44,493 nt of DNA. Source: Klebsormidium nitens. Its lineage: Eukaryota; Plantae; Klebsormidiophyceae. Both the position numbers and the translations under genes were made by a program. The stretch is taken from contig DF237639.1 of NCBI GenBank assembly GCA_000708835.1, positions 1 to 44,493 of the forward strand, given 5' to 3'. The notes beneath the pieces were generated by a model. That model saw only the letters and a program-made list of their open reading frames with translations. It did no database searches and was not told where the DNA came from. This document shows positions 137-33,923 of the stretch, piece by piece (position 1 is the first letter of the stretch; every line of letters starts with the position of its first letter).

Positions 137-864
137 GCACACTACAACGCGTTCCGAACAAGCCGCTTCAATTCTCTCAGTGCCTTCTTTACCGTCCGAT
201 GACTGGGGTCAAATGTCTAGACGGCTCCAAACTCCTGACACGTGCTCCGTTTGCTTACCGCTTGATGCTTTCAAATTCCATAATGTTGCACCCCCCTTGA
301 CGTCATCATGTGCGGCGCACAGAACAGGTACCGCCGGTCCCTGTTCGTCGTGGCAACCGGGCAGGACTCAAAAAGGTGGGCAAGGTCTGTGCAGGGCTAA
401 CGTACAAGTATATTGGGGCTGAAGCTGTCTTTCATATCCACTTGTTTTAGTGAATGTCATATTGAAAACAAGACTCAAGAGTGCTGATCAGTTATATGGG
501 AAGACATTTCTCTGCTAAATCACATATTCTATGGTGTCATAGCCCGCAAGCAGATAGTCCGCATAGTCCGCAGTCTCAAACTTGCTGCAGGTCCGTGGTG
601 AGCATTCTAACATTGCTCAGTCGACCTCAACTGCTTGGACTGCTTTTGATCAGAATCTTTTGTCAAACAGGGAGCTGAACACGTTACAAAGGACCCGAGC
701 TCTAGCTTGCAGGAAGTTGCTTCTGTAGCTGCCATGTCAAAGCATTTCTTATGGTCATTGTCAGCAAGTTACTTTGACATCAATCTGGGCAGGTCAAGTT
801 GCTGGGAGCTGAGGCCAAGTGGGTCCTGAACCAATTGGGCAATCACTGTTCTGGTGAAGCAAAG

Positions 865-3800
865 ATGGCTGACGACCTGGCAGAGGATGAAGTGAAGCTC
901 AGTCCACATCTTCAAGAGTGGATTGGTGGCTGGGTGGACTCCAAAAGCAAAGGCAATGACTGGACCCTGCCCTCGGTCAATCTCAAAACTGGGAAGCTAA
1001 GCAAACCACTCGATACCAGGTTCTGGCCGTCGTGCTTCAAGGATTGTCCGGATCCTGTCATTGCCAGCAGGGGACAGACGCGGGAGAAGGTCCTTCAAAT
1101 CTTCCAGAGTGCGGGCAAACGAGTATTCTTCTGCCATTGGCAGGTCCTCTACAACGACCTTGTGCCTATCATCTATTGCCCAAAGTGTGAACAGATCAAG
1201 AACCTGGAGGGGGATGGGTGGACTTTGGCGAAAGTGCGAAGGGTATGCATGCTGATTGGGCCAGCGTTCCTGGTGTCCAAGTGCTACCGCTGCAAGAAAT
1301 GTCCAGGTAATAGCATTCACAAGCCTGTCTTTGTCAATCACCTGTCGGTCAGGCAGTCCACTCCGGTGGCAAATGGTTTGCCAATGCCCTGTTTGGGGCA
1401 GCCCTGTCAGTCTGCATGCTTTGCAGCAATTGTACGAAGAGGACTTGCTCAACTTACTGAACTGGAGCTGAGCTATGATCAGGTCTTTTTTTTTGCCATG
1501 ATCCTGCTTTACTGGAGCTCCAAGTTTCCTGCTCTGGCCATGCTCTTTTGCAGAAAAGTGGTCATTCACTGGACATTTGACCGGACGCCAACATCTGAAG
1601 TCATCATCTCTAGATGACCTATTATACCCTGATAGACGTTATGTAATATGCAGGAAACGAAGGCAAGGACTACCAGTTTCGGGCCCACGACGAGGGCGTC
1701 ATCAAGCAACTATCAGCCGCTCTTGAAGCATCACTCAATATCCGCTTCACGCAGCACGGGGCAGTTGACGTGTCCCTGATGGATTTTCTGCTTCGCAACG
1801 TCAGCAGCGGCGTTGCATTTGCGGACTCAGCGGATGCGGTGCAAGAGCTGCATTACATCACTTATAACAGGAGCAAGTTGGGGCACATGCAGTACACCGC
1901 TGAGCGAGGGAAGCTCGCACTGAAACGTGCTTCGTACTTCAACAGCGCCACTGTTGCGTCAGGGCAGGTGCCACCTCCAGCAGATTTTGGGGCGTACGAA
2001 GACAAGCAGGGCTATAGGGGCTGGATTCCCTCGCGCTCGTACCTTACAAGTAAGCATCTGATCATTGGCACCTGCAGTCTGGCAGATGCCTTACCACTCT
2101 TGCTTTGTGGTTGACAAATTGGATTGGTACATCTTGTCATGCTCAGATTGTCTCAGCACGCTTTTTAGTCTTTCATTTGGAAAGTAGGGTCTTGCGATCA
2201 AAGCCAAACCTTGAAGCTGAGGTGCACAACGCTTGTATGTCTGCAGACTTTGTCGTGCATCAGAAAAGGCTGTCCCTGTGTGGATGTGGAATGGTGAATA
2301 CATACACTGAAACAGTTTGCTTATCCAATGTGGTTCTCTGATTACAGGGACTCTGTTGGCTTACTTGACAGAGCGGCTTGCCTGGCCTAAGGAGCGCCTA
2401 GCCATGGTTGACGGGCTCTACCTTCGGGGTGACCACACGTTCAGGTCTGCCTCAAAGGTCAAGGTTCAAGAGGGGGGCAAGGCTTATGAAGCTATGTACA
2501 CCGTCATGAACGGGTTCAGTAAGGTGGCCGCTCAGTGGATGGTGGGCGATACCTCGTTCAGGGAGATTGAAGGGGGCTTGCGCGACTTGATGAAGCGCTA
2601 TGAGGAGAACTTTCAGGATCGGGTAAGTCAGGATAGAGGTGATTGAAAGTCTTCTGGCTTTTTGAGATTCTGCACATATTTGAGCATAGTGTACCCTCTT
2701 GGCTTGTCTCTCATGACTTGAGGTAATCTCTTCATGGGGCAGACTGGCCTTGTCAAGATTGGAGCGGAAGACAAGCTGGGGGCTGTGCGATGAGATGATG
2801 AGATGCAGACTGAACTTGCCACCAGGGCCGTAATCGCATGGAACCCAGTTGAAGGCCCCCTCGTCAAGCTCTACGCCGTAATCCTCAGCAAAGACCCGCA
2901 AGATTGCATCTTGGAACTGTGTAATAACGCTTTCAAGGAACTCTCCCTCTGGCAGACCGGCGTCCCTCTCCATGTCTAGATACGGTTTACAGGGCCTACC
3001 CTCGACTAAAACTTCCTCCCCATGAGGCTGCCCTCTAAAATTGTCCATTGCAGTGGGCCAATCTGGGTACGATCCGTAACTCCTATACCCTTTGCCACGG
3101 GACAGGTGACGGATCTCAACCCTGTGACCAAGCAGAGCGGCAAAGCGCTTACCGAATTTCTGTGGCCCGTCTTTTGAATCTTTGCAACAGAGTCCAGGGA
3201 GGCTGGAAACTTTCCAAAAGAAAGACGTACCCAGCTTCATCTGTCGAATGATCTGAACGATGCCGCCCTGAAACTTTTCACTGTGCACAACCGTGCTTTC
3301 GGGAGGCAGATGTCGGATGGGGTGCTCGCTGCTTGGTATATCTGGAACGAACTTCGGAGGCTGCAGGAAGAAGAAGGAGAGCCACATAAGCTTTGAGCTA
3401 CACGACGTANNNNNNNNNNNNNNNNNNNNAAATGACCAGAGCGACCATGAGTACGGTGCAAGTGGTTAAGTGCTTGAACACCAAGCAATTGGGCATTGAT
3501 TCCGCAGTTGTTCAGCAAATCTGTGTGCAAGGTGGTGCTGGTCGCACGTCCTCGAGGGAGACTCAGGGGTGGTACTTAATGTGTGAGACTGGTCTTTAAT
3601 TTGTGGCTATCAATATGGTTAGCGGTTAATCCGGTCGAGCACGAAGAAAGATTGGCATGTCTAAAGGAGACCTCGTGTAGGGTGACTCTGCTGGTATCGC
3701 AATGAAGATGCTGATTCTTGATTCTAAACCCTTTGTAGGCGACTTCATGCGAGATCTGAGCCGCGCCATGTTTGTAATCAAGGCCGGGGACAAGGAGAGT

Positions 3801-6800
3801 CTGCGAAATCATCTCCTCCAGCGTGCCCGAAAGAAGCTGACAGCAAAGGAGATCGCCGCTAAGCCGGACAGGTATTGGAACACCCACTGCAGGCGGACAA
3901 TCCCCAAGAAGGAACTGCTGGCTGCGCGACTGGATGCTGTTTTGAAGAAGTACGAGATTGGGGGAAACGCCTGCGACGGGGATCCCCTTGTAACGAGGGA
4001 GCTGAACGAGGTGCACGAAAGGCAGATGAAGCTTGTCTGGGCAGGGGCACTGAGTGGTGAGTAGCTCCGCAATCATTGCATCTACAGAAGTGCTTCTTTG
4101 CAGGTCAAATTATCTTCGAGATCTCGTGAATACAAAAGATGTCGTTCTTGCTTCTTGTACGGAAAGGTTCGAACCCGGGGTGTAACAAGAGGCCAGTGCA
4201 AAGCGAACGTCAATCGTTTACTTAGACGCTGACCACTCATTCCAAGACAGGCTAAGCTTATTACATCTTTCTAGATCAGATCACGAACATGAACGCCCTG
4301 CGCTTCGACGTCACTCCATATTGCAAAAGTTCTGTCCTTAGGAGCACAAACGTCAAACGTTGGCATCAGAATACGTGTGGACTTCAAGGAGCCAAGTCGT
4401 CTGTTCTTCTGATGCTTCATTGTGTCTTTTTCAAACAGATCCGCTGGGAGTGGAGGAGATGTACTACGACGTCAGCAAACCGGGCTGCATGCCGCAATTC
4501 AAGAGCGTCCGCGGCACCTCCAAGCTTGAGGGCTATCACAAGCACCTCAACAGCCTGTTCGCCGGGGGGAATTGCTCGCCGGAGTTGGCCGACGCGCTGC
4601 TCACCATCTTCAACTACCGGTGGAACATCACTTGCGGCGTTGCTAACCGGGGGGACCAGGACTACAGCATGCACGATCATTTCCTTCTCGAGGAAATGCA
4701 GAAGGTCTGCCGGGATATGGGGTGGCCGGACCCTTTCCCGGAGTGGAAGAAAGCTCCTCCAACGGCTGAGCGCTTTGGGGCGGATAACCTGCCACCTGAG
4801 GTGCGGGAGGCACTGGAGGCAGCGGCAGCGATTGGGGAGCCCGCGCCCACAGAAGACGACTTGGAGGCCGTGGCTGTGGAGGAACTATTGGAGCAGCAGG
4901 CGCTTGCCAAGCAGGGGCGAGATGCAGGTAGGGAACTTAGCAACATTTCAACGAAAGCTTGGTGCTTGGACGTCAGTTGCCAGTGCGCGCAGTCTGTACA
5001 TACTGTTGCCGGTCTTGCAGCTGGGTTCCTGACCAGTACTTGCATGTCTTGAGGAGAACGTTTGGAGTTCACACCCTCGGAGGTCTTTCCATTGTGGCTT
5101 TTGAAGGGTTCAATATGTCAACCCTTCGCACGTGTGACGCAAAGTGCTCTGAGCATAAAGAATGCTGATCACTCAAGGAGACGCTTTGGTGGTCATGTAA
5201 TGTCTCATGCCTCCGCACCTTATCCTTTTTGCGAGTAAAACATACACTCTTTCTTCTATATCGCAGAGGCTCCTGCCAAGCTGTCCTCCGACCAGTTGTG
5301 TGCACCGGTCCCCGCCATCGCGGACCAATTGCACACGTTCCTGCCCCCTAGGCCCGACCAGGCGGGCGCGTCGCTCCCCCCCCACCCCGAGCAGTCGCGC
5401 TCGCCACTTGCCCCCCTCTCCGACCTGTCGCGGGCGCAGCAGCGCCCCCTCTCCAAGCAGGCGAACGCGCCGCTGGCCCCCCCCTCCAACCAAACGTGCA
5501 CGTCCCACCCCCCCCTCCTAATCAGTTGCGCGCGCAGCTCCCAACCCCCTCCGATCAGCCGCAGCCGTTCCTGGCCCCTCGCCCCGAGCAGTCGCCCGAA
5601 ATCCTCCCCCCCCCCATCGACCAGTGTCACCCGCAGCTGGCCCCCCCCTCCGCCCAGACGCGCGTGTTGTTACCCCCACCCTCTGACCAGTTGCATGCGC
5701 CGCTAGCTCCCCCCTCCGACCAGTGGCGCGCATCGTTAACCCCCCCCTCCGGACAGTCAAGCGCGCAGCCGCGCCCCCTTTTGGGCCAGTCGGGCGCATC
5801 GCTCTCCCCCCCCTCGGAACAATTGCGCACCCAGCTGCCCCCTTGCTCCAAACATTCAAGCGCGCAGCCCGCCCCCCACTCCCAGCCGTCTCGCGCGCCG
5901 TTAGCCCCCCCCTCCGACCAGCCACGCGTTGCGCTGCCCCCCCGCTCTGCCAATCAGCCGCGTACACCACTGGCCCCCCGCTCCGACCAGCTGCGCGCAC
6001 ACTTGGCCCCTGCCCTAAATCAGTGGCGCGCGCCATTGCCTCCATTTCACCAGCGCGACGCACAGCCGGTGCCGCCTTCCAACCAGCAGCAAGTGCCGCA
6101 GGGCACCCTCTCAAGTCCCAACCCCATGATGCATCCCCGGGCTCCCTTCGACCATCAGCAAGCGCGGTTTCCCAATGTTTCCGTTGCCTCACGGTCGCGA
6201 GTGCCCATGCCTTGCGAGCCGCTGCGAACGCTGGCGCCAGTGCTGGCTCCCGCCTCTATGGGGCAAAATGTACAGCTCCGAGCAATTCCGGCCCGGGTGG
6301 TGCAACCGCAAGGGCCGCAAGTCGTTGGCCCGTCCAAACGGAAAGACTCCGTTGGCGGTGCTGGAGTTGCTGGTAAGCTCTTGATAGGGCTAGCAGCACT
6401 TGCAATTTGCAGCATGTGAAGGGCGGAATCTGTAGTACTGGTCAAGGGCCTGGAGGTATGCACAGAAGAGGAAGTCGTGAGTCGCAACCCAGTCGTTGCT
6501 CGAACATCATACTCAGCCGGGCTAGAACAAGCACGGCTTGTATTGATCATCCATGGTTTTGCCTTGCAAGATCGTATCTCAGACTATGCTCTCTTTCTTT
6601 TGCAGTTGAAGGTGCGGCACACGCCACACCAGCAAAGCGCCAGAAACCAAAGCCGCAAGGAGCTCCCGTTCCGATTGGTAAGTGAATTGCTTTCGGTGAA
6701 GGGTTCTGAGTTGTGCTTTGTGTATTCTGATCTAGTGTATGACCTTGTTGTTCGAGCTCGACAACTGCATCGCAAAAATTTGGATCGTCAGGGAATCAAC

Positions 6801-7685
6801 TTGAGCGCCAATCATAAGAATCTTGAGCTGAGCACCCTGATTCTAGCTAGGATTTTGCAGTAAGCGAAACGACATTTTCTTTTCCTTGAAGCTGAGTTGT
6901 GTACTGCAGATCCGGATCCCTCTCTGCACACGTTGCCCAAGCAGCGAGCTACCACTGTCAATCGATCAGGCCGTCTATCATACCAGCGAAAGGTGGGATA
7001 TCGTATCCCAAAGTTCAGGGACCTTCAGCGGCCCGTTTCAACGACTGCAGAATTCGAGCTTTTTGACGAGTTGTTCTTGAAGTATACGAAGAGAACGTCT
7101 ACAGATTGGGATGCTTTTGGGCGGGAGTGGCATAACCGGGCCAGCTTATCTGCACATCGGGTGGAGGGGGCGGAACGAGCCATTCACTTCACGAGCGTTC
7201 CACTGCTCAAGCGACACCTTACTCTATCCTATAGGGCAGGGCTGCGGCGAGACTCTTTGAACAATCTCACAGCGTTGCGTCATCGTTTGCAGACAAGTCC
7301 GCTGCCCTCCATCCCGAGCGCAGCCACTCCGCACTTCCCCGATCCATTCACGTCCTTTCACACCACGCACTTACAAACCTCATTGCACGATGCGCACGCT
7401 CACTCATTCCACGCACCGGGCCAGCATGGAAGCTTCCAATATGTACCACCATCTTCTGAGTTGGCTGTAAATTGTGTAGCTCCGCTGTATAGTGGTCCCC
7501 TGGTATCTAGCAATCAAGTAGGGAAGCTAACGAAACAAAAAGCGGCGCCAACGAACAACCGAGGTGGGAAGGGGACCAAGAGGATTTGCAGAGAATGTCG
7601 AGAGAAAGAGTGCTTGGATGGTTGTTCGAAAAAAGCCAAGAGAGATGCGGAGGCTCAAAAGAAAGCAACAAGGACTAAGACATAA
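865..7685 (+). CDS. Spliced DDE transposase, Mutator/ISL3-like (resembles the DUF6729-associated type); one exon hidden in an assembly gap and one frameshift in a poly-C tract
   Basis: Phase-consistent GT-AG exons: 865-1306, 1654-2049, 2348-2622, (gap)-3455, 3739-4056, 4439-4927, 5267-6372, 6606-6677, 6910-7685. Motifs: N-terminal CPKC..GW..VRRV..YRCKKC; first catalytic Asp in LRGDHTFRSA..MYTVMN..VAAQWMV; DHEYG|DFMRDLSRAMF; catalytic Glu in RGTSKLEGYHKHL; C-terminal PVSTTAEFELFDEL..DW..FGREWH. The second Asp exon is not visible and probably lies in the N-gap at 3410-3429. Confidence 0.8.
2690..3165 (-). pseudogene. Fragment of an archaeo-eukaryotic primase (PrimPol / NCLDV-herpes type) catalytic domain, antisense within a transposase intron
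   Basis: ORF 2452-3387(-) contains KRFAA..GYRSYGSY..W..F..HGEEVLVEGRPCKPYLDME (motif I, DxE) and GKFSLHLII (motif II, SxH). Motif III and the Zn finger are not recognisable downstream. Confidence 0.75.
3410..3429. other. Assembly gap (20 N)
   Basis: Run of N. Confidence 1.
5284..6090 (+). repeat. Degenerate coding tandem repeat, ~33 bp / 11 aa unit (consensus like LAPPSDQxRAx), roughly two dozen copies
   Basis: Recurrent GCCCCCCC(C)TCCGACCAG and variants giving PPSDQ, PPSNQ, PPSEQ, PPSGQ, PRPDQ, PRSDQ. The frame switches near 5505-5520 in a poly-C run. Confidence 0.85.
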
Positions 7686-7893
7686 ACGGAGTACAAGTTT
7701 TGGTAGTCTAGATTGGAGACTCTTCAAATCATTCTTTTGTATTCGTCCGAGCTGCTGAAAGTTTGCCAAGGTTTCTGACTCTCTGAAGCCTTCAGATGTC
7801 AAATGATTCATAGGGATATCCTATGAATCAGCGCAAAGTCTCTCGACGATAGCTGGATATACCTTCATATACCTACTGTAGTCACGATTTCTG

Positions 7894-7913
7894 NNNNNNN
7901 NNNNNNNNNNNNN
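7894..7913. other. Assembly gap (20 N)
   Basis: Run of N. Confidence 1.
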
Positions 7914-8061
7914 AGATCGGAAGGCCTGTAATATGTCCAAGTTGTTGTTTTGCATCTACATAATTATTTTGACCACTCGCGAGCGCGCCCGGTTCATCAC
8001 GACTCATCAGGTCCTCCTGGTCGCCCTACGGGAGCGGACTTCGTCCCCCCAGCCCTTTTGC

Positions 8062-8290
8062 GGGCCTTCGGCCCCCCCGGCAGGGCGGCCTTCGGCCGCC
8101 CCGACCCCCCCTTTTCGCGTTTTTTTGCGCCCCGACCTACTGAATTTTTCGGAACCAGGGAATCTTATACTCCGACCGGGTCGACCACGTGGTATAACCG
8201 CTCATAAACCGCTCAGAAATGACCTACGTTGCACGCTCTAACAGTAAAATAAACCACGTTGCACGCCTAGAAAACGAGATAAACTACGTG
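8062..8290. repeat. GC-rich TTC-loop hairpins followed by periodic direct repeats (candidate subterminal region)
   Basis: GGGCC-TTC-GGCCC (8062-8074) and GGGCGGCC-TTC-GGCCGCCC (8083-8101); AACCGCTCA at 8196 and 8207; ACGTTGCACGC at 8226 and 8256 with ACGTG at 8286 (30 bp period). Confidence 0.7.
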
Positions 8291-8468
8291 ATCATAGCTG
8301 AATAGCAGGCGGCAGTCGACCAGTCGACGGAAATACTGTGATCAAGGCCGGAGCAGCTTTGACTTGCAGGGTATAAATTCCCACATAAATCAAAGTGGTT
8401 TTATCAGATTTCGTAGCTCGAAGCCTGCAGACAGCCGCAACCCGAGCCAAGGCAACGCACCAGGGACC

Positions 8469-9014
8469 ATGCCATCTCAGCAGAGGGACCCCCCAGCTCT
8501 CAGACTAGGTTTTGAGGACCAGAAGAGTTTGCAGACTGGACGATACATTGTTGATCCGACCCTTCTGTCCAGCGAAACGCCTGTAGCTAGCAAATGCGTG
8601 CTCTGCAGACAGCCCCTCCTGGTCAATCATAGGATAACTTTCCGCAAATCCCAACAGTCTCTCAGTGGTTTTGCCATCTCCTCAGCCGTGAAATGCAAAC
8701 AGCGGGTTCAACCATTGTGTCTTTCATGCGTACAACGCTGGTCCGGCAGCGTTCATCTGACTGAGACCTCAGTGATAGTTCAGCAAAAGCAGGTAGCTGA
8801 GACGTGGTTCCAGCGCAAATCGCAGAGCGCTCCGTGGAAGCAGGTCAAAGAGCTCACAAGCAGCTATGTAGAAGGCTTGGCAGCGCAGGAAGCAATAAGC
8901 AGACAGGAAGTCACATGCAAAGTCAAGAAGTCTGCCGCAGAAAGTGCGCTCAACCGGGGAAGGGCTGCTGGAGCAGACACCAAACGCAAGCTCCATGTGA
9001 GTTTTGAGTCTTGA
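8469..9014 (+). CDS. Hypothetical protein (~181 aa) with two CxxC pairs
   Basis: Uninterrupted ORF from ATG 8469 containing CVLC and CLSC; no family recognised. Confidence 0.35.
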   Translation: MPSQQRDPPALRLGFEDQKSLQTGRYIVDPTLLSSETPVASKCVLCRQPLLVNHRITFRKSQQSLSGFAISSAVKCKQRVQPLCLSCVQRWSGSVHLTETSVIVQQKQVAETWFQRKSQSAPWKQVKELTSSYVEGLAAQEAISRQEVTCKVKKSAAESALNRGRAAGADTKRKLHVSFES

Positions 9015-9063
9015 CTCAAAATGTGTTGTATCTGGAGTAAGAGAGCAAATACTTGAAGATCTT

Positions 9064-9083
9064 NNNNNNNNNNNNNNNNNNNN
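9064..9083. other. Assembly gap (20 N)
   Basis: Run of N. Confidence 1.
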
Positions 9084-9319
9084 GGGTTAAGTTCCGAGCT
9101 GGCGCGCGGGTGGTCATCCGGGTGGCCTTCCTGGCGGAATGGGGGGGACACGTGGCGGCAGGAGGTTTGAGGATTTTGTGCCGTTCAGCACTGCTTGGCT
9201 AGTTGGGTTCGGAGTAGGTGACTGTCACCGTGACAGGAAACAAGTTTGGACTAATAAATCAACTGCTCAGGGGGAGCGGACGTGTTAGTTCGTAAAGAGA
9301 AGGACAGGGGGACATTGAA

Positions 9320-12300
9320 ATGGCGACAGCACAGGCGAGTCAAGTGGACGGAGCAGAGGCTTCTGGTGAGGGCGCAGCACAAGCCCCGCAGGACCGGAAA
9401 AGAGCTCGCGCTAGAGAGTACCTGGACTGCAACTTCAGAGATGCAGAAGGGGTTGACTGTGAATGCCCGTCCTTCTGTCAGCAGCAGGAAGGATTGGAGT
9501 GCTCATCCTGCAAGCACAAGCGGGGCTTCCATGCAGCAGATGAAGGTCTTCCAGAGCACGGCGTAACGAAATGCCTGCACAGTAACTGCCGCTGCCTTGA
9601 ATACGACAAAGAGCCGGGAGGCCCCTCTGTGTGCGTTAACTGCAGGCACTCCATACGAAAGCACACGAGTAAGCTTCAGGCAACATCAGTAGTGCCCTCA
9701 GCTCGTTGTCTTCCCAAGCAGGGCCTTCCACGTGCTTGCCCCGCTTGCTTTGTCTGGGAGCAGGCACTCTCCTGTGCTTCCCTGCTTGCTGAATTCTTGA
9801 GGAGGGACTCTCCTGTGCTTCAAAGCTTGCTGAATGTTTGAAGAGGGACTTTCCTGTGCTCGCCCTGTCTCAAGGGGGCCAACCCTTTCAAATGGCGCTC
9901 AACTGCTTGGCCTTAGCATCACCGCTGGTTCATGCAGAGGTGTTGTTCTGGGTCATGGGCTTTGGGACCAAGATGCACTTCAGGCACGGGACGTCGCGCA
10001 ACCAGGTTCGCCGCGCATTCGAGTGCGCTGGTCACAGGCCTGACCTGGAGCTGCTGGCATTTGAAGACGGGACCCTTGTTCCTGTTGGGGAAGACTTGAC
10101 TGGCGGCTACACGTACACGCTACAAGGAGGTAAATCTACTCGTCTTTGTTTCATGTCAGCCTGGTCCAGGGTCAGCGGGAATGAGGTGGCGCACCTGCGT
10201 TTTGCTTACTTCATCTGACGAAGGCCTTGTGACCGGCCCCCTCAGATACTTGACCACTCGTAAGAGCAGCGGGGTTCAAGTGATTCTGGCACACTCCTGT
10301 TCCTGGGAATGCGACACTGCTCTTCTCATGACTTGGACTGGCTGCATCAATCTGCAGACAAACGACCTGCGCGGGTATGTTCTTGGTCGGGCCCCATTGG
10401 AGAGAGGCCCCAATTTGACGAAATGACAGGCACCTACCCGATTCACAGCAGAGCATGTTCCTTCTCTCGTGTTTCTGTCATTATAATCTGAATGTCCATT
10501 TGCCCAGCATGTGACGCCCAGTCCCCTCCTCCTCTGCAGGTCCGGTCTTCTCCGGGCAGCCCCCCATGATGCACACCCCGTCATCATTCCTTCGACGCAT
10601 GTCGCAAATGGGGCGGCCAGAAGAGTTGGCCACACTCATCCCGGACGCGTGGCGGGAGAAGGTTGACAGGTTTCTGGAGCGAGTCCGGTCAGCGGAGAGC
10701 CGGGAGCACCTGAACAGCCTGCCTCTGACGGAGCTTAAAAACGAGGGGAACCACGGTCTGAAGACCGCGGCGTACGAACGGCTCAAGGAAATCCTGGAGC
10801 ATCTCATGACATACCTTCCAGTCGGTTTCCCTCCCCTCCTCTTAAAGCGAGAACCCACTCTGGCCCTGGGAATCAGCGTTCAAGGCAATAGGACGATGGA
10901 GGGTCGCATTGACCTGGTCGCACTCGACCCAGACTGGGAACTGGCCCGCAGCTGGAAGTCCGCTCTGACGTGGGCGGAGATGAAGGGCACGTCCAAAGGC
11001 CCCCAGCCGGCAGAGAAGGACTACACGGCCCAGAATCTCAGCAGAGGGGGCTCTGTCTTCTGCGCTCGGCGGGATTCGGGAGAGGGGGGGACTCAGGAGT
11101 TGCTCTGTATAGGCACAGACTCACGGAATGCAAGCTTCCTGCGCTACAGCATGCACCTAGCGCAGGAGCTGAGCAGGGGTTACTGGGAAAAGACGAAGCT
11201 CTACAAGTTGTTTGGAGACGACGGGGTTCTCATGGTCAACGGGGAGGGCTGCCGCGAGCTCCTGTACGTGCTGCTTCGCACCTCGGAGGTCATGAAGTGC
11301 AGGGAGGAGCAGAGGTTGCAGCTGGCAGCAGCTGCCGAGCCACAGGACTGGGAGCCCGGGAGGGATGGAGAGGGGGAGCGCGTCCCAGGGGCGCTGCGCA
11401 TTGCTGCGCGGGATGTGGCGACAGGAAGTCTGTCGGGGGGCGCGGGCGGAGTTTGCTTGGCAGGCGCCGAGGCTGCGGAAGTCTCGAGTGGGGCGAGGCG
11501 CATGACTGAGGTGGCCATCACCGGGGTTTTCGATGTGGGCGGTGCCTTGGCTGAGGCATTCAGGGGCTTGGTGGTTGCCCCAGTGTTCACCAGCGGGGAC
11601 CTGGCTGTGGTGCGAGACGACCAGGGGGGAGTGCAGACCTTCCAGGTGGATGGGCCCCCGCTGTCCCAGAGCTCGCGCGGCGCGGTGTACGCAGTGCGGT
11701 CTCTTGATGCACCGGGCACCCCGGCTGCGATCCTGCGGCACGGCCAGTGGACCGAGGGGGGCAGCATGTTTGTGGAGGCGCACACGGTTGCGCTGGAGCG
11801 GCTGCAGGGTGTGCATGGGCACCCCAGGGTCATTTGCAAGGGGGTCGTGGACCAGCCAGGAGGCGGTGAGGGAGGTCGGGCCACGGCGCTGGCGGTGGTT
11901 GAGTCGCATGAGGGGACCAGCGTGCAGCCGGGCTCCTTGGACAAGTACGGTGTCAGCCAGCTGGGGGCGAGCCTCTGCGCCCAGCTCGCAGTGCAGTCAC
12001 AGTGCGGGATCCTGCAGCGTGACCTCACCCTGGACAACGTCCTGGTGCGCGCGAAACGGTCGCCCAGGCCCCCCCGGTCTCCCAACCCCCTCCTGCGCAG
12101 CGTCTCTGTGGCTGACTCTGCCCAAACTTCGCGGAGCAGCGATGAGGGGTTCTTGAGCCTGCACTCCCTCTCTTCGTCCGGAGCGTCCAGCGGGGTTTGT
12201 TCACCGACCAGGCCCCGTCAGACCCACCCCTCTCCCTCGCCTACCAGCCCCCTGCAGACAACCCCGGCACCTCGCCCCGATTTGAGCAACGAGTTTGAAG

Positions 12301-12734
12301 GGCTGACCTTCACGAACTGCGACTTCGACCTGGCGGGGGTGGTCGGGGTGACCGAGCGGTTTGGTTTCCGGTACACAAACACCCCTATCGTCAAGAACAG
12401 CTACTTTCAGCCGCATGCTCTCTTCGTCGAGTACCTCACCGCCGGGGATGTGGCGCTCACGCTGGCGCTTGTGATGGCCACCGCTTATAGTGGCATGGGG
12501 GCTCTTCCTTGGGCGGACAAGGCGGCGGCAGCAGACGAGCACGCCGTGCATGCGGAGCTGCAGAGAGCGCTGACGGATCCATGGCAGCTCTTCGGCCTAG
12601 GGGAGGTGCACCCCCTGGTCGGACAGTTTGTACGCGAGGCCAAGGCGGCCGTGCAGTCGGACGCGCACTGGGAGAGGTGGAGCGCCAGCCTGCAGAAGGC
12701 GGCGGACGAGCTCAGCATCCAGCGGGGTAAGTGA
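9320..12734 (+). CDS. Crinkler/RHS (CR)-like multidomain protein: tandem Cys/His Zn fingers, Ubl-like domain, PD-(D/E)xK restriction-endonuclease-like domain, FunK1-like (possibly pseudo) kinase
   Basis: Exons 9320-9668, 9938-10129, 10540-12734, all phase-1 compatible. Two CxC-xx-F/Y-x(7-8)-CxxCxH-xxx-H units; EGRIDLVA..WAEMK..TAQ (D..ExK..Q); kinase motifs GILQRDLTLDNVLV and CDFDLA. A possible donor at ~12728 means further 3' exons cannot be excluded. Confidence 0.75.
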
Positions 12735-14592
12735 TGGGCCTCAGGTCAGCTCTGTGCATCGAGTTGTGGGCTCCACGGGCCATTTGCTTCCTCAGAATCA
12801 GGTGCGGCAAACATGCATGCGAGCTTCTGACGAGCTGAGAGAGGGGAGTGCGGTGTCCGTTTCCCGTCCTCCAGTCTACTCAAGATGCTACCGCAGATTT
12901 TGATCCTGCGTCTGTTGTGCTCGTCCTCCACTCACAAACAGCTTTTTAATGCCAGGGGTGCGCTGCATGGTAGCATCGTCCACCATGACTGTGGCAGATG
13001 GGCTTGTCGTTTGATAATGGTTTTTTTTGCTCTGGTACCAATTATACCCAACCTCAAATCTTGAAAGGAGGCTGTGTTTGGTTCGATAGCACCACAAGTC
13101 GATCGCTCTTGAGGAAACTCTCCATATTGCGTGCAGCGAGCCCAGGAAAGGGCAGCCGGTCACCCTCGCCGAGGAAGCAGGTCGAAGGTCGGCCACTCTG
13201 ATCGGTTGCGCAATTTGGTCTACCTTGAGTCATCAATGCTCAGCTTTGTTCGTGCAAGATCAATCAGTGACGTATTAGCTGCCTCTATGGCTGAGCGATA
13301 TGGGACTCTCAAAAAGCGATAAATTGAAATTGTTTGTTAGGGCTATCTGGTCTGCATGGCTTGACCCATGAGTTCATAGCTTTGGAATCAAGTGTGACGC
13401 AAATCATGCAACACATTGAAAGCTTTGTGCACACAATGTTCGATCTCATCTATCTTACCTTGCGCGCCACTGCTTGAAAGTATGCTGAGTACGAGTCGTT
13501 TTTCAATCACAATTTAGAATACTTTTGATACATACTTGTGAACATATAATTGATCATTTGAAGACGCAATTGCAGTGCTTTTCAATGCAAAGTGTAGCTT
13601 CAAAAGCCCATGCATGGCCAATGGAGCATCGTATGATAGACAAGTGTACTCTTCAATTTGTTGTGGTCCTATAGGCGGTTTGGCTGGATAGCTTCATCAA
13701 ATGCAACCGGCATATCTAGGTCAACGTTACAAATAAGGTTTGGCTCCCGATGACTCGATTTGTGCATATAGCGATTGCATATGAACGCATATTGATGTGC
13801 GTCAGTAACGTTTGTCCATGAAAATTCATGATGAAGGCGCAATGAAGGGGCATCATTGGGGCAAACACGTTCCGTATAGTGTAACTAACTCTCCATCCTT
13901 CAGATTTGGAAATGTATGTAATCCCTTCCAGACCAACGACGTGTGACTTGCACAAGCGACCTTGAGAGTCTGATGATCAATGACGGAATGGCAGGCGAAA
14001 GGACTGAACGAATATCTACAGTGCGGGATTCCTGTACCGAAGGATGTACTTAAGGTATGCCTACAGTACGAAAACATCAATTCGAAGGATGTACCTAAGC
14101 TGTTGTGAACGCTCGAACCACCTCGATGATCGGCGCTCGACACATTGGACAGGTTTCCGTGGTCTGTTGCAGCTGCCTTGCACAGTTATGGCATGCGCAC
14201 ATGTCTCCACATCTGCAATCAGAAAGGCCCTTGAGAAAGTGGGCGAATATCGCTACTGCTGCTACCGTAATTGCTTTGAAAACCAGCTCTCAGATGAATA
14301 ATGGTGGACTCCACGCTTGGGAAACAGAAGATTCTCGAGGATATAAAGAGGCTCCGTTGCATCCGGAGGCACCCCGTTGAAAATTGTGTCGCATGTTGCA
14401 AGGCGTCAGTATAAAAGCCATGTCAATACTCCGAAGGAGAAAGCGAATGCCACCAGCATACGTATTGGTCCACGAAGGGAGCTCGCTTCCGTGCGGCCTC
14501 TGCAAAGGATGTCGACAAGCTCTGCCGCAATCGCCTACCTGTACATCAGCGAGTCGATCGGGCTCTCACAGCACACGAAGCACACGCCTCTC

Positions 14593-17500
14593 TTAATGGC
14601 AGCGTGACTTGGAACCGTCCAAGTCCGTCTGGTATGCAGCGCTGATCTTGTTGAGCTCCCCGCAGCACACATTGCTGGCTTCCCGTCCGCTTGGGTCCAC
14701 CCTCCACACCGACCCTGTCCAGATGTACCACTTCTCGTTGGAGAAGACGAGCTTGTGGCCGGTGTAGATTTGCAAGCGATCAGTGATCTGCGCGCCACCC
14801 TCGTCACCTGCAGATCAGTGAGACGCTGGGGTGCTGCCCATAAAATCGAACCAAATAATCTGATCGGCCGGCCTAGTACTACAATTTTCGGGCAAGTCCG
14901 GCTAGAATAAAGACCCTGACACTCAGAAAGCAGCCACCCCCACCGTTGAAAGTGACACACTTCAGATCTACGAAGCTCCGAAAGTGTTGTTCGAGGATGA
15001 TTGCTTTCTTCATCCGGCTGATTTTCAACGGTAAAGATGAGCTCGAGAGCGGGCAGAGACCACAGGACGTACTTGGGAGTTCGTCAGAAAGCTGCTAGCC
15101 TGAGGAAGAGTGCATTCCTCTATTGACTCGTTCATCTCCTGTATGGTATCCCGGATTGCCGACTGGTTGATGCACGACAGAATTCAGGAGCGCTTTCTAG
15201 TCTGATAGGCCCAGAATTTGTGCAGGATCACTGGTTTACGAAACCTATGCACGACCATCCTGGCGCGACTCACCTGAGAAGATCGAAAGGTTCTGTTTCA
15301 AGAACCAGAGTGGAAACAGCTCCCGGTCCTCGTACAGTCAATCTCGCTCGCTGTTGAGGTGCTCTGCATCCGAGAACGCGGCCGCTACTGGGAAGGGGAG
15401 CCGACCCAGCTTCTTCTTCGCGCGGCCACTAGCGCTCTGGCACCGCCCACTGTGGCACACGTAGGTGATCTCCGTTCCTCTTCTGAGGAGACCAAAATTG
15501 TTGCTGTTGTGCCCCCGGTCCCCCGGCTTGAGGTGTGGGCACGACTCGCGGCCCCCTGGACCATTCCGAAAGTGGTACATAACAGCCCCTGGACCGGCGA
15601 CCGTGCTCGCTTCCGCGTTGCTGAAGACTGAAGTGTTCTCTCCGTAACTGCTGAGCAGGCCCCACAGGACCTCGACCAACGTCTTGCTACAGAGCAGCAT
15701 CCGCAAGATCCGGCGCCTTGGAGAAAGCGGACGGGGCCTCGACCCCAGACACTTTCTCGACTGCGACCTTGACTTTCATCCGCACTTTCGCCCCCCCAGC
15801 TGCCCTCGAAGCGCGCTCGTTCAGGATCCCGATGACCCAGTCGGGAAGCTGTGGCAGGGCATCTACGGCTGGCAGCTCCCCTCTGCTGGCCGCAGTGTAT
15901 CGCGCGACCTTCTCGCCCCGCTGGTAGGACGAGGGGGGGCACGCTATCATGCCGTTCAAGCTCACGTCCCGCATGTCCACCCCCACTTCCTTGAAGGACT
16001 CCTTCCCCATTTCAGGGTCCCGAGCCCTGAGCTTCAATTTTGCAAAGTGCATCAGGGTGTCTGCGCCCAAACCCGCCTCTAGACTCTTCTCACGCAAGAA
16101 GTATAGGTGAACCCCCCCGCTGCCTGTGCGCACTCGCGGCTCCGTGAACGAACCGTGCTCCCTCTCCCACTCAGCTAGCTGCTCCACGCCCCCGTCCGCA
16201 TGGTCGAAGTCCAGCACGAGAATGCCCGAGGCAGCTGTGTTGACCAGGAGAGTGTTGATAGGGGTTGAAGAAGGGGGGGGCGAGGCAATTGGTGATGGTG
16301 GACGCCGGCCAATCCTTGGGCGGCCTCATGCTCTTTCCGCCCTTCCCGCCCTTGGCGTCGGGGTCCCACTTGGTGTTTGCAGAGAAGACGGCGTATCCTT
16401 TCTCGACCATGCCCCGAGCTGCGGTTGCCTGCAAATGGATCAAAATTCGATTTCAGTTTTTCGGAGGCAGACTTGCGAACCGTTTACGAAATTTCAGCAA
16501 GCGCGAAAACTGCTGTCCGCGCTGTCTGCGCCGTCCATGGAGGGAAATTCGTAGTAGCTCAGGCCTCTACATAGACAGCACGGCTGTCAGCGCTTGTTGG
16601 GCTTCTGAAATGGCACGACATTCAACTAGGAAAAAGGCGGAAGATCATAGGAGTCTAAAAAGCCTTGTCTACGCTGTCCACGTTGTCCATGAAGAGGGAT
16701 CTGTAATTGTTGGTCTTCCTTCATGGACAGTACTGCTGTCAGCACTTGATGAGTTTCCACTGATGCGCAAGTCAGAGGAGAGATGAGGACAAACAAGCCT
16801 CTTGAAAAACCTTGTATATGTTGTCCACGCTGTCCATGAAGGGCGATCTCTAGCAGTAGGGCTTCTTTATTGCATACACAACACCGCTCTCCACACTTAC
16901 TGAACTTTCTGCGATGGAGCCTGCAAAGGACAGCCCTCCAAAAGCACTGCTGTACATGTGAAGAACTCACCATCTGATCTGCTCCGAGTTCCCTCTCTTG
17001 GTCTGCAAGGCGATGATCGTTGACAGAATCGACCGGCTCGAGGCAATCGGCGGCCCTGGCCGTGTCAGAGCAAGTCTCCCCGCCGTCCTCTTCGGAAGGC
17101 TCATCGTCAGCACCTTCGCAATCATCCTCGGCAGAGAATGATGCTCGCTGCGAGAGGGCCTCCAAATCCTGCAGAAATAACCTGAAATCTGAAAGGCTTG
17201 TCCGCGCTGTCCCCGTTGTCCGTGGAAGGAGGTCTAGATAGCTGGCTTCTCTTCATGGACAGTACGCTGTCAGCGCTGAGATCGTAGCGATTTCAAAAGA
17301 TGACTACAAAAGCACGCTTGTGAACTACACCAGGCAGTCAATTGAAAGTCACGAAACGAGAAGTCATGTTCACGTTGTCCTAGCTGACGCCCCTACAAGT
17401 GTGTGCCATTTGAAATGGAAGCGAAGGTCCAGGACTCTGTCCGCGCTGTCCATGTTGTCCATGAAGGGAACTCTCAAACAGGTGACGCTTAGCATAGACA

Positions 17501-17620
17501 GCGATGCTGTCAGCCTCACCGAGTCGTACCTGCCCATGGCTGTCTCAACGTCGACCTCCTCCTCGCAACCATCCCCGCGTGGCTCACTTGTTGCCTCAGC
17601 TGCGGCCCCTACTTCAACAT
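14593..17620 (-). pseudogene. Intron-containing bifunctional Prim-Pol + Zn-binding domain + D5_N primase(-helicase) gene, decayed, helicase part not seen
   Basis: Exons ~17520-17620, 16971-17168, 15274-16428, 14593-14807 with matching phases. Prim-Pol motifs ILVLDFD, RVRTGSGGVHLYF, VDMR..NGMIACPPS..Y..LPDWV. Zn motif RESCPH..HNSNNF..YVCHSGRC. D5_N-like GDEGGAQ..LVFSNEKWYIWTGSVWRVD. Lesions: frameshifts ~16255 and ~15700, in-frame TGA 15338-15340, TAA 14593-14595. Confidence 0.8.
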
Positions 17621-19880
17621 GTTTGCGTTTCCTGCCGCGTCCATGATGGGCGGCGGAGACGTCACACGGAACAGACAGCACAGCGTTTCATCGAAAAAAG
17701 GGATACCCTTGCGCAGCAATCAGCCTCATCAAGAGCTTTTCCCCACAAGACAGCCCTGCTGTCTACCAAGACAAGGACGCGACAAGGAGTTTGTCTGGAT
17801 GGACAGCTCGGACAGCGAAGACGGCTCTTATGATGTGGTCACCGCTTGGGATTACAGTTTACTACATGGCCTTGCCTCCGACGAGATTGGTGACTAGCCA
17901 GCCAAGCAGCATATCAGGGCCTGTTCTTGACGCACACTGCGCAGGGCAGTAGCTCACCTGATCACTGTTCATCTGGTTGCATTGGATGGGCTCTGCCCGT
18001 CTCGGCGATGACAACCTTTCCTTCACAGTCCATTGGCGGCAATCCTCCAGCACCCTGCATGGCATCGCATCATCAGTTAGTGACCTTGATCGATAGTAAG
18101 CAAAGCATCAGGGGGCTGGCCTCGACTCGCCGTCCATTGTGATTAGCTCGGACAGGATCAAGACCAGCTTTCATCTACAAACCGCTCTACATGGACAAGT
18201 TGGACAGCGTAGACACCATGTTTAGAAGCCCTCAGAACTCGGATCGACCGACCCTCTACGTTGACCAGTTGCACCGGTCCATGATGTCAACATCAAGACT
18301 CTTATCTGCTGTACTTGAAGCATGTTTCCAACTCTCAAGCTCACCTGATCGCTACAGTTCCTGTCACTTTCTTCACGAAGGCTTTTTTGAAATGCTTCAA
18401 ACGAGATACTAAAGAGAGTCTGCCTTGCGACTTCGTCTAATAGGCCCTCCATCTGGAAACGAGAAAGAGGGGTCAATGAAAACCATGCCAGTCTAATGCG
18501 TCTTCCACCAACACCGGACACCTCAGCCAAGCCTTCCTACAGACGAGATTTTTCAGCGTCAAATCAAACAACAGCCTGCAGGCAATCACATGAATGCACC
18601 GCTGCAAGAGATGCTTTCACCCTGAGTGAATGTCCACAACAAGTCTGACGCTATATGTGCACCTTTACAATCGTACCTTGGAATGCCTAGCGCTGCTAAG
18701 CTGTGTTGTTCACTGAAGTTCCTCTATTTTGCAAAAATGAAACATGCGATATAGCAGCACAGCGCCTGTGCGCGCTTGGCGCAACCTCAAGAAAGCAACT
18801 ACCTAGATAACAGAACACCAGCTCACAGAAGTCGACCACTCATGGCCAGTCAGCGGTGTCTTAGAGCGCATCTTCTGGCAGCACTGAGGGGACACAATTG
18901 GTGCCGAGCGGTTCAATTCTGGCAGTTCAATCCTGGCAGCATGCACCCTGGCCTTGGCATTGGCCCCCAAATTGGTAGTTGTATACTGGGAATGCAGCTT
19001 GCGGATTTTGTCATCTGATGTTTTCCCAAGTTTGACGTGGGTTGAGAACCTCAGTCACCCCAGGAAAAAGACGCTAGCAGCCTGGCAATGGAAGAGTGCA
19101 CCACCACCTCCAAGAAGCAGAAAGCAGATATACTCAGAAAAGGCCAAGATTGGCGACACTTACCTCAGAGACTCATTCTGTATGCCGCAAAAACCAACGC
19201 TTCATTTTGGTCATGCTTGTCTGAAAGGCTTTGAACTACAGGCTCTGTGTGAGGAGCTTCAAAGCAGGTGCTTCAGTCTGGCAGCATCAGCCGCGGGTCA
19301 GGCGCAATTGGCGCCCATGGGGGGCTTTACTTAGCTGATTCAAGACGGTGGCGGTTCTATCACATACGTCAGCAGTCCTAACGCTCTGATCTAGCTAGAT
19401 GCCAGAAACTCAGACACGGCGAAACATATGCTCTAGACTGCGGCCTACTCCTGGCGCCGCGCCACTTCGATCAGCTGTGCTGCCCAGCCTGTGCTGATGC
19501 TGAGCCTTCAATGAACTGGGCATCCCACCTGCTTCATCAGCCTACTTACGTGGCGAGGCAGTTACAGACTCTGTTTTTGCGAAGTGTATGCCGAGGCAAT
19601 TGAATGCAGATTCTGTTTTCTTCTTTCGGATCTCACGGACGTCCCCTCTGAGCTGTCTAGAGGTCACAAGTCCCTCTTCATGGACAGCGAGCTGTCAGGC
19701 CGCTCGGCGTCCGGTCCCTATTAAGCCGTGTCTCACCGCTGTCTCAGGTAGCCTGGCGTCCGACCAGAATTGTAATATTTAAGCTTATTCGGATTTTCCA
19801 GAGGCGTGTCTGAGCTGTCTGGGCCGTCTATGAAGAGGGCTCGTGAATGATATTCCGTCCCCACGAACAGCATGCTGTCC
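16512..19880. repeat. Dispersed family of ~80 bp structured sites: (TGTCY-N4)x3-ATGAAG..~24 nt variable..CTTCAT-GGACAG-N3/4-GCTGTC
   Basis: Complete forward units ~16512-16591, 16663-16745, 17197-17277, 17436-17515, 19807-19880; reverse unit ~17745-17825; half units ~16811-16845 (+), ~18190-18216 (-), ~19677-19698 (+). Confidence 0.85.
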
Positions 19881-32472: not shown

Positions 32473-33923
32473 CTTGCTCCACTCTGCTCCAAGGCCGCTG
32501 ACGCGCTGCTTGAGCTGCATGATGGGCGTGCCCAGCTCCATCTCCACCTTCTTCCTGAGCCAGTTCTCGTCCAGCCCAAAGCTCCCGAGGTACCGGTCAT
32601 ACCGGTCCTTCACAGCCTCAAGCGCCGCCGCAAACGTGTCCTTAGTGGCCTGCAGACAAGGTTTGCAGAGACGGGACGAGGTCACAAAAAAGTAGCTCAC
32701 TTTAGACTTTCCCTTCTGCTGAAGAAGATGGGTCCATAGCAATCGAGTCTCCAGAAAAAAGGAGCTTCTTGTACTTGAAAGAGGATGATTCTTTATGACT
32801 GCACCTTAACGCCTCCACGCCTTTGAGCCACCACACAACACTAGAAATGCCTATCTCTGACATAAACCTCAAAAACAGAGGACAGACGACCACCCTCACA
32901 TTGCCATCATTGCTCTGATCGTCCAGCTCCATCCTCATCTGCTCCAGCCTGTCTGAAAACTTCTCAACCGCATCCGCAGCCCTCCAGGCGTCCTTCAGCA
33001 GCTCCGATTGAGAACCGCCTTTGCTGAGGACGGCCTGCACGTCCTTCTTGACTTCCTCTGGGAGCTTTTGCCAGTTGGAGGCGAGCAGGGCATTGATCGC
33101 CTTGCTGACATCCTCGTCATCGATGTGGGGGAGAGTGGCGCTGGTGTAGCTGCTCATGAAGCGGTAGGGAGTGGAGCTGAAAGCGGAAGGAGCGGCAGCG
33201 CCTGCGGGGGAGACGAGTACTGAGAATTAGTTGTTGGGACGGACCAAGAAAAGATTCCCCTCTCTCAAGCTTGCCCACAGACTGTCAATGTGCGGGTATC
33301 AATGAAGTGCAGGGAAATCCTTGGGGCATTTTAGAAGAAAATTAAGGAGAGCAGTATCTTTGGGAAGTTTTGACTTGCAGTGCCTGATCATCAGAACAAT
33401 CTAGACCGGCTTTGTCCACTATCTCTTTGGCAGCTACAACCTTCCCGCTCCTTCTTGCTACATGCTAAGAGGAAAGCTAGGGAATCTCAATGCAGTGAAA
33501 ATGCTAACACCGTTTGTCCAACGACCGAGTCACTTCTGGTACAAGAGCTGCCAAACCAGAGAAGCTGAAAGCCAGCGAGCCAGATGGAGACTTGTCATGG
33601 CTGGCCTCAGTGCTTGCTAGGTTGTTCAGTGAGTTCTCAGATTCCTTTCACATAAGATAAAAATCATGGCTCTCGCATAGGGATCCGCAATTGCTCTCAT
33701 GTGGTGGCATGACTATTACAAAAGGGAAAGTCTTCACGCGGACCAGGAAAGAAAAGGACTACTCACCAGAGAAAAGTCGGACGTCACTGCCGTGCTGGCA
33801 GGCTGCTCTGCTTTGATCATCAGCTGCCTTGCATGCATTCTCAACAAGCACAGGCAGCGATGCGTGGTTGGATTTCAACATGGTGTTGCGGCCACACTGC
33901 CGAAGAATCAGACGCAGTGCCAT
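32473..33923 (-). CDS. SDH5: Plant-specific succinate dehydrogenase subunit 5, mitochondrial; last exon not located
   Basis: Exons 33767-33923 (presequence-like MALRLILRQCGR..), ~32900-33220 and 32473-32649. LPHIDDEDV..ALLASNWQKLP..AWRAADAVEKF..MELDD and RYDRYLGSFG.DE.WLRKKVEMELGT..LKQRVSGLGAEWSKV match the SDH5 family. Confidence 0.88.

Follow-up and report, generated by a model that had tools for sequence, protein, structure and literature searches.

Proteins of the CR (Crinkler) type are the closest described systems to the gene reported here. They include proteins whose C-termini combine a restriction-type endonuclease (REase) with a protein kinase, as in CRN8 of Phytophthora infestans (Zhang et al. 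2016, via PMC5289972), and in the account given by PMC5289972 toxicity is ascribed to the nuclease and its regulation to the kinase. The kinase of CRN8 is active and of the RD class; cells are still killed by a kinase-inactive mutant, but not by a double mutant (PMC3426532). A link to transposons is described for CR proteins (PMC5289972), and many of them are thought to be delivered in spite of having no signal peptide (PMC5289972, PMC6131194). Homologues from algae and plants have been published before (PMC6131194); they have been reported in chlorophyte algae as well as in land plants, and a selfish CR-like gene has been reported in fish (PMC12957317). The presence of such a protein in an alga, which a first-pass annotation of this DNA had pointed out, is therefore not new. 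The role of CR-type nuclease-kinase proteins in free-living algae and plants is described in PMC12957317 as an open question.

The gene analyzed here is an intact and expressed example of the CR type in Klebsormidium nitens, a relative of land plants that can probably be grown in culture. The gene lies in a window of 44,493 nucleotides (the whole stretch of DNA that was analyzed), in which a plant-type SDH5 gene is present as well (Pfam E 3e-17). We tentatively propose that it is a transcribed, intron-containing algal CR-like gene, and that its product is an intracellular defence nuclease, restrained by a kinase domain that is predicted to lack catalytic activity. The features on which this proposal is based are the following.

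9320..9668, + strand: exon 1, 116 codons, with a low-complexity start, a basic patch and two Zn-finger-like units
9458..9532, + strand: Cys/His unit 1, amino acids 47-71, CxC-x2-F-x8-CxxCxH-x4-H
9587..9664, + strand: Cys/His unit 2, amino acids 90-115, CxC-x2-Y-x9-CxxCxH-x4-H
9669..9937, + strand: intron 1, 269 nt, GT..AG, with three 41-nt tandem copies at 9739-9861
9938..10129, + strand: exon 2, 64 codons (192 nt), in phase 1 on either side
10130..10539, + strand: intron 2, 410 nt, GT..AG
10569..11300, + strand: helical lead-in and likely PD-(D/E)xK nuclease domain, with D305 (10911), E327 (10977), K329 (10983) and Q345 (11031)
about 11106-11120, + strand: GTD strand of the nuclease-like domain
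11583..12726, + strand: protein-kinase-fold domain, predicted pseudokinase, with R580, His595, D675, N680 and DFD at 775-777
12727..13136, + strand: intron 3, 410 nt, GT..AG, removed in X7 and X10, retained in X4
13137..13201, + strand: coding part of exon 4, a short Ser/Pro/basic tail with its stop at 13199-13201 (930-aa form)

The open reading frame starts at ATG 9320, and spliced RNA-type contigs encode an intact protein of 911 or 930 amino acids. Assembled runs were compared over positions 8000-16500, namely three runs guessed to be RNA (X4, X7 and X10, each from a different study) and a single DNA run (X1). The joints 9668>9938 and 10129>10540 are found in 3/3 RNA-guessed runs and in 0/1 DNA run, and every exon is in phase and free of stops, which confirms the spliced frame that had been annotated. 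Transcription follows from the presence of these spliced joints, the RNA status of the runs being itself a program's guess. Between 0.74 and 0.91 of the sequence words are contained in 15 RNA-guessed runs (6 studies), and RNA-type contigs start at 9244-9278 in X4, X7 and X13. A loose 5' end in one RNA-guessed run, X10, is absent from the window and is a probable chimera. The annotated gene end at 12734 applies to the unspliced isoform: retention of intron 3, as in X4, leads to the stop at 12732-12734 and to 911 amino acids. In X7 and X10 the splicing of this third intron, which had been missed, removes that stop, so that a 930-aa form ending at 13201 exists beside the 911-aa form. The RNA contig of exon 4 runs on to 13382.

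Using exon 3 as a query, HMMER retrieved 8 proteins from 1.84 billion representatives, each of them best matched in the kinase half. A further homologue search with exon 3 gave nothing new, a search with the relative P0011 returned only P0011, and no relatives were found in viral contigs or in genome contigs. One out of 182 candidates passed a metagenome scan and turned out to be a spurious bacterial locus (L001). The only named homologue is GAQ82278.1 of Klebsormidium nitens (P0007). Together with the relatives P0004-P0014 it belongs to the same kinase subfamily at 31-69% identity, the closest relatives found being 55-69% identical. Most relatives are fragments. The C-lobe and the DFDLA motif are present in P0007 and P0014, and P0011 possesses both the nuclease and the kinase part.

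At the level of profile comparison the C-terminal domain is shown to have a kinase fold. A profile made from the relatives (A1) gave 202 matches in the PDB, and each of the best 60 of these 202 is a kinase or a pseudokinase (best E 0.0023). The DFDLA motif of the first-pass annotation is present at 12321. The Gly loop is degenerate and contains one Gly. The beta3 Lys position, assigned by alignment and not by structure, is occupied by Arg (R580), and the same Arg occurs in P0004, P0005, P0008, P0010 and P0014, that is in 5/6 relatives carrying the motif; the sixth, P0011, keeps the Lys and also an HGD. P0004, P0008 and P0014 are near one another and are thus not independent cases, and the beta3 stretch is absent from P0006, P0007 and P0009. 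His595 takes the alphaC Glu position, as a His does in P0011; this position was placed by motif spacing, for which we assume the usual spacing of kinases. HRD is replaced by QRD with the catalytic-loop residues D675 and N680 intact, and DFG is replaced by DFD with the metal-binding D775 kept. An insert of about 80 residues, rich in Ser and Pro, lies between the catalytic loop and DFD.

Catalysis by canonical kinases needs the beta3 Lys or a lysine that substitutes for it (PMC4718504). Having lost this residue, the domain is classed as a pseudokinase by the definition given there and is predicted to be catalytically dead, a point that the first-pass annotation had overlooked. We grant a limited chance to an atypical activity, because active exceptions without the beta3 Lys exist, such as WNK and PRPK/Bud32 (PMC4718504), and because a basic residue is retained in the Gly loop of the query and of most relatives. 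Between the query and P0014 identity is 66% and 71% in the two lobes and 35% in the insert. The stronger conservation of the lobes is an argument that the domain is under constraint and not decaying.

Such constraint could also be expected if the same architecture had been domesticated for signalling or scaffolding, with a nuclease-like domain that binds nucleic acid or a partner and has no role in defence. Steady expression in several studies, regular spliceosomal introns and the alternative C-terminal tail would fit this explanation as well. We regard it as rather unlikely, since none of the four predicted nuclease residues has been lost. The residues of the D..ExK..Q set of the first-pass annotation are present, with D at 10911, E at 10977, K at 10983 and Q at 11031, and in P0011 D, ExK, Q and the GT strand follow one another in the same order ahead of its own kinase, at 24% identity over the N-terminal 250 residues (pairwise E 6e-7). 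Furthermore, the search of the representatives described above points to no conserved orthologue outside a narrow group.

The first-pass annotation had inferred a toxin, immunity or selfish-element protein lying between a transposase and a viral-type primase. As an argument this neighborhood is weak. The upstream element (about 330-7900) is a multi-exon gene with a sub-threshold match to DUF6729 (E 0.07) and no family match above threshold, so that the term transposase is not upheld by the searches; from its motifs we take it to be of the KDZ type. Background on KDZ elements is given in PMC12730594. This element behaves as a separate repeat. N gaps at 7894 and 9064 lie between it and the gene, and the DNA contigs covering it show scattered differences from the window. 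RNA contigs leave it uncovered in 2/2 RNA-guessed runs (X10 and X13), which, being based on contigs, is a weak hint. In the DNA run X1 position 8152 is followed by 26 different letters and then by 9084, indicating that 8153-9063 is a repeat, polymorphic or misplaced, and overlapping variant contigs are found at 8150-8905 in the same run. Downstream lies a convergent spliced gene, whose Prim-Pol domain was matched at E 4e-10 and whose RING-like end at E 8e-8. The frames of this gene are broken several times, and RNA contigs agree with the DNA there. Giant-virus core genes were previously reported in Klebsormidium (PMC5294986). The transposon and primase neighbors appear to be separate elements, and nothing joins the three genes into one unit.

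These observations bear on a further explanation, according to which the gene is selfish or is transposon cargo, and its nuclease helps its own locus or a mobile element to spread or to be retained. The published link of CR proteins to transposons (PMC5289972) and the precedent in fish (PMC12957317) speak in its favor, as do the repeat that ends within about 1.2 kb upstream of the gene and the fragmentary or frameshifted state of several relatives. We nevertheless judge it unlikely. Unlike the region at 8150-8905, the gene is found on a single unbranched 3.6-kb contig in X1 with no second variant, and the closest relatives found share 55-69% identity with it. No terminal repeats enclose the gene within the window, nor was a terminal inverted repeat found between the window start and 7914-8200, and the upstream element shows the lack of RNA contig cover mentioned above.

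The proposal of a defence nuclease depends on the region 10569-11300, which we consider likely to have a PD-(D/E)xK fold. There is moderate support for residues about 190-435 being a metal-dependent nuclease of this class that would use D305, E327, K329 and Q345. The bare D..ExK..Q pattern turns up in 6.8% of shuffles; a stricter nuclease pattern, written after seeing the sequence, was found in 0/20,000. Three fungal clusters without a name (0.90-0.92) neighbor the domain in the ESM Atlas, and so does an HSDR_N cluster (0.89), whose family was assigned on 22% of its members. Following this last lead, templates were taken from 15 HSDR_N loci of three cyanobacteria. Classical HsdR-type matches and one locus without a usable frame were left out, and the 6 short stand-alone proteins kept were later extended to 36 sequences, which are related to one another. 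With hhalign a two-sequence alignment of the domain matched these 36 HSDR_N-like proteins at E 0.0039 (score 26.6, 108 columns, hhalign probability 8.5%), and D305, E327/K329, Q345 and the TD/TNG hairpin strand are in register with the cyanobacterial family. Sixty column shuffles scored 14.0 +/- 2.1 (maximum 18.9; 0/60 reached 26.6), and the reversed alignment scored 12.1. When single family members were compared with 45 decoy ORFs the best score was 30.1 against 20.2 and the mean 15.5 against 13.3, three members exceeding the best decoy. The 6-sequence family gave E 0.14 in hhalign, the HMM of the same 6 sequences missed the query in HMMER, and in the global mode of hhalign the match was not above shuffles (15/60 reached its score).

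Searches of Pfam, NCBIfam, PADLOC and PHROG gave no match for the nuclease-like domain. Proteins of 133-427 amino acids, searched with the two-sequence nuclease profile, gave no match at E<=10. The nuclease profile gave 4 weak and unrelated matches, none of them credible, in 401 cyanobacterial genomes, and 2 chance matches with internal stops in 3 genomes. A PDB match to a designed helical repeat (E 2e-5) was rejected as an effect of helix composition. AlphaFold models reached a pLDDT of 35 from a single sequence and of 33 from two sequences, and Foldseek returned noise and no meaningful structural match for the low-confidence model. The nuclease of the first-pass annotation is moderately supported by the profile match (E 0.004) and by the register of the catalytic residues, not by a confident fold. 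For positions of about 10600-11200 no fold other than PD-(D/E)xK was indicated, AlphaFold and Foldseek having given no usable fold either way.

It could be argued from the lack of a structure and of a library match, and from a loose motif that occurs in about 7% of shuffles, that 10569-11300 is no nuclease at all and that a lineage-specific pseudokinase is joined here to some unrelated alpha/beta domain. We hold this to be improbable: the in-register profile match lies above 60/60 shuffles, three family members lie above the best of the 45 decoys, and both the conservation of the motif in P0011 and the ESM Atlas neighbors point to a nuclease.

Ahead of the nuclease-like domain the protein carries a header encoded by exons 1 and 2. 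The first-pass annotation had described two CxC..CxxCxHxxxH units; two units do exist, with the spacing HxxxxH, and the pattern as originally written matches nothing. The corrected pattern CxxCxHx4H has just two matches in all six frames of the whole window, both being the exon 1 units, and 0/50,000 shuffles of exon 1 gave two matches. From the arrangement of their residues we infer that the units may bind Zn. Library searches including Pfam, PHROG and NCBIfam found no family match for them, and all ESM Atlas matches were below 0.9. The header was seen in none of the retrieved relatives, the queries of those searches having been made without the header exons. Exon 2 agrees with the exon of about 65 amino acids that had been annotated. 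Its size and hydrophobic pattern are compatible with a putative beta-grasp/Ubl fold, for which Pfam, PDB, PHROG and NCBIfam gave no match, and its symmetrical phase 1 is consistent with exon shuffling.

We know of no delivery route in Klebsormidium, and a Cys/His header suits the reducing interior of a cell. An exported toxin directed against neighboring microbes, like the oomycete Crinklers, is thus very unlikely in spite of the header-plus-enzyme layout and of the delivery without signal peptide thought to apply to many CR proteins (PMC5289972, PMC6131194), given that a signal-like hydrophobic N-terminus is absent (maximum 15-residue hydropathy -0.11) and that neither LFLAK-type nor HVL-type motifs (LxLFLAK, HVLxxP) occur in exon 1, in exon 2 or in the first 120 amino acids of exon 3.

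An intracellular conflict nuclease therefore remains our preferred reading, because of the intact nuclease motif, the steady expression, the missing secretion signal and the CR model of a toxic nuclease with a kinase as its regulator. It also agrees with the cell killing seen with the kinase-inactive CRN8 mutant, though not with the double mutant (PMC3426532). In mechanistic terms, the nuclease-like part would cut nucleic acid in a metal-dependent manner through the four residues named above. The kinase domain could bind a nucleotide or a partner and act as a conformational or dimerization switch rather than by phosphate transfer. The expression of the gene in ordinary, surviving cultures suggests that the nuclease is normally off or highly selective. 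The weakest steps of this scheme concern the header and the outcome: the Zn-finger pair and the exon 2 domain might have been added by exon shuffling, the header might sense a trigger, e.g. a viral or transposon protein or a nucleic acid, and the freed nuclease might then cut invader DNA or kill the cell. One may speculate further, with little confidence, that Klebsormidium-type algae possess a lineage-specific family of immune receptors acting inside the cell, in which a shuffled Zn-finger/Ubl sensor and a conserved Lys-to-Arg pseudokinase gate a restriction-type nuclease, a eukaryotic form of "abortive infection" directed against giant viruses, remnants of which are scattered through these genomes. 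The Lys-bearing P0011 and the Arg-bearing clade form a natural contrast pair, which can be used as a test of a non-catalytic regulation of the nuclease by the kinase.

How the protein relates to known systems can be stated domain by domain. The stand-alone cyanobacterial HSDR_N-like nucleases (weak match to PF04313, approximately 210 amino acids) align with the query in the G-x-x-D strand, ExK, the Q helix and the TD/TNG hairpin. Identity is about 19% with insertions, the spacing from D to ExK is longer in the query, and these nucleases have neither a kinase nor a header. With pseudokinases that lack the VAIK lysine the C-terminal domain shares the loss of the beta3 Lys and the retention of both Asp residues, and it differs from them in belonging to an unrelated lineage. 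The likeness to the top PDB match, PRAG1/SgK223, is confined to the surroundings of the catalytic loop and the insert, and is no sign of kinship.

The comparison of the whole protein leads back to the CR proteins. No sequence match to a named CRN/CR family or to a CR-Ubl header was obtained, Pfam included. Our literature searches brought up no work on this family in Klebsormidium, and the protein lists of the defining CR study may already include it. In one RNA-supported frame exons 1 and 2 precede the nuclease-like and the kinase domain, so that the order of header, likely restriction-type nuclease and kinase is that of CR REase-kinase proteins such as CRN8. This architecture and its likeness to CR proteins, as claimed by the first-pass annotation, are supported by the profile matches and by the description in PMC5289972. 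Judged by its motifs the protein falls outside the Crinklers proper, since LFLAK/HVL are absent; compared to CRN8 it carries a tandem Cys/His header and has lost the beta3 Lys. The nuclease-kinase architecture itself is not new; what appears to be new is the tandem Cys/His header together with a conserved clade of Lys-to-Arg pseudokinases.

We regard the primase-like gene, which lies convergent to and 3' of the spliced gene for a CR-like protein with a likely nuclease domain and a predicted pseudokinase, together with the following features of the window.

37-146: inverted repeat of 50 nt (72%) at the window start, containing direct repeats of 30 nt
About 330-7900, plus strand: multi-exon transposase-like gene
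5346-6029: internal array in the transposase-like gene, with 18 or more degenerate, Pro-rich repeat units of 33 nt
7914-9063: contig bounded by N gaps on both sides
About 8060-8110: GC-rich hairpin-like sequence inside this contig
8298-9014: 238-codon Cys-containing frame, in a repeated segment of the same contig 3' of the hairpin-like sequence
13858-about 17250, minus strand: primase-like gene, spliced and transcribed
16514-17474: five dispersed 37-nt repeats around that gene's 5' part
16666-16705 and 18176-18215: 40-nt inverted pair (85%) around the same 5' part
32702-33226, minus strand: exon of a plant-type SDH5 gene, for subunit 5 of succinate dehydrogenase (Pfam SDH5_plant, E 3e-17)

A Prim-Pol domain (Pfam E 3.7e-10) as well as PHROG primase matches were found in the primase-like gene, its middle is primase-helicase-like, and its last exon is RING-like (E 8e-8). 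The primase part runs through three frames with internal stops, and the DNA and RNA contigs agree letter for letter in three runs whose RNA status was guessed. The gene has the appearance of a pseudogene of viral origin that is expressed and is fused with a RING exon. The 37-nt repeats and the inverted pair (16514-18215) are possibly element termini or origin-like repeats.

On the other side of the CR-like gene, the transposase-like gene is presumably KDZ-like, as judged from motifs only. Related copies with about 87-92% identity occur in another sequencing run (X19), and the inverted repeat at 37-146 may be a sub-terminal structure of this upstream element. In the DNA run X1 position 8152 is joined directly towards 9084; therefore the assembly or the strain differs at 7914-9063. 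SDH5 is an ordinary host gene, and it points to a streptophyte.

Stand-alone HSDR_N-like nucleases of about 210 aa form a multi-copy family in cyanobacteria (loci L133-L172), which is present in 36 of the 151 genomes searched with at most nine matches per genome.
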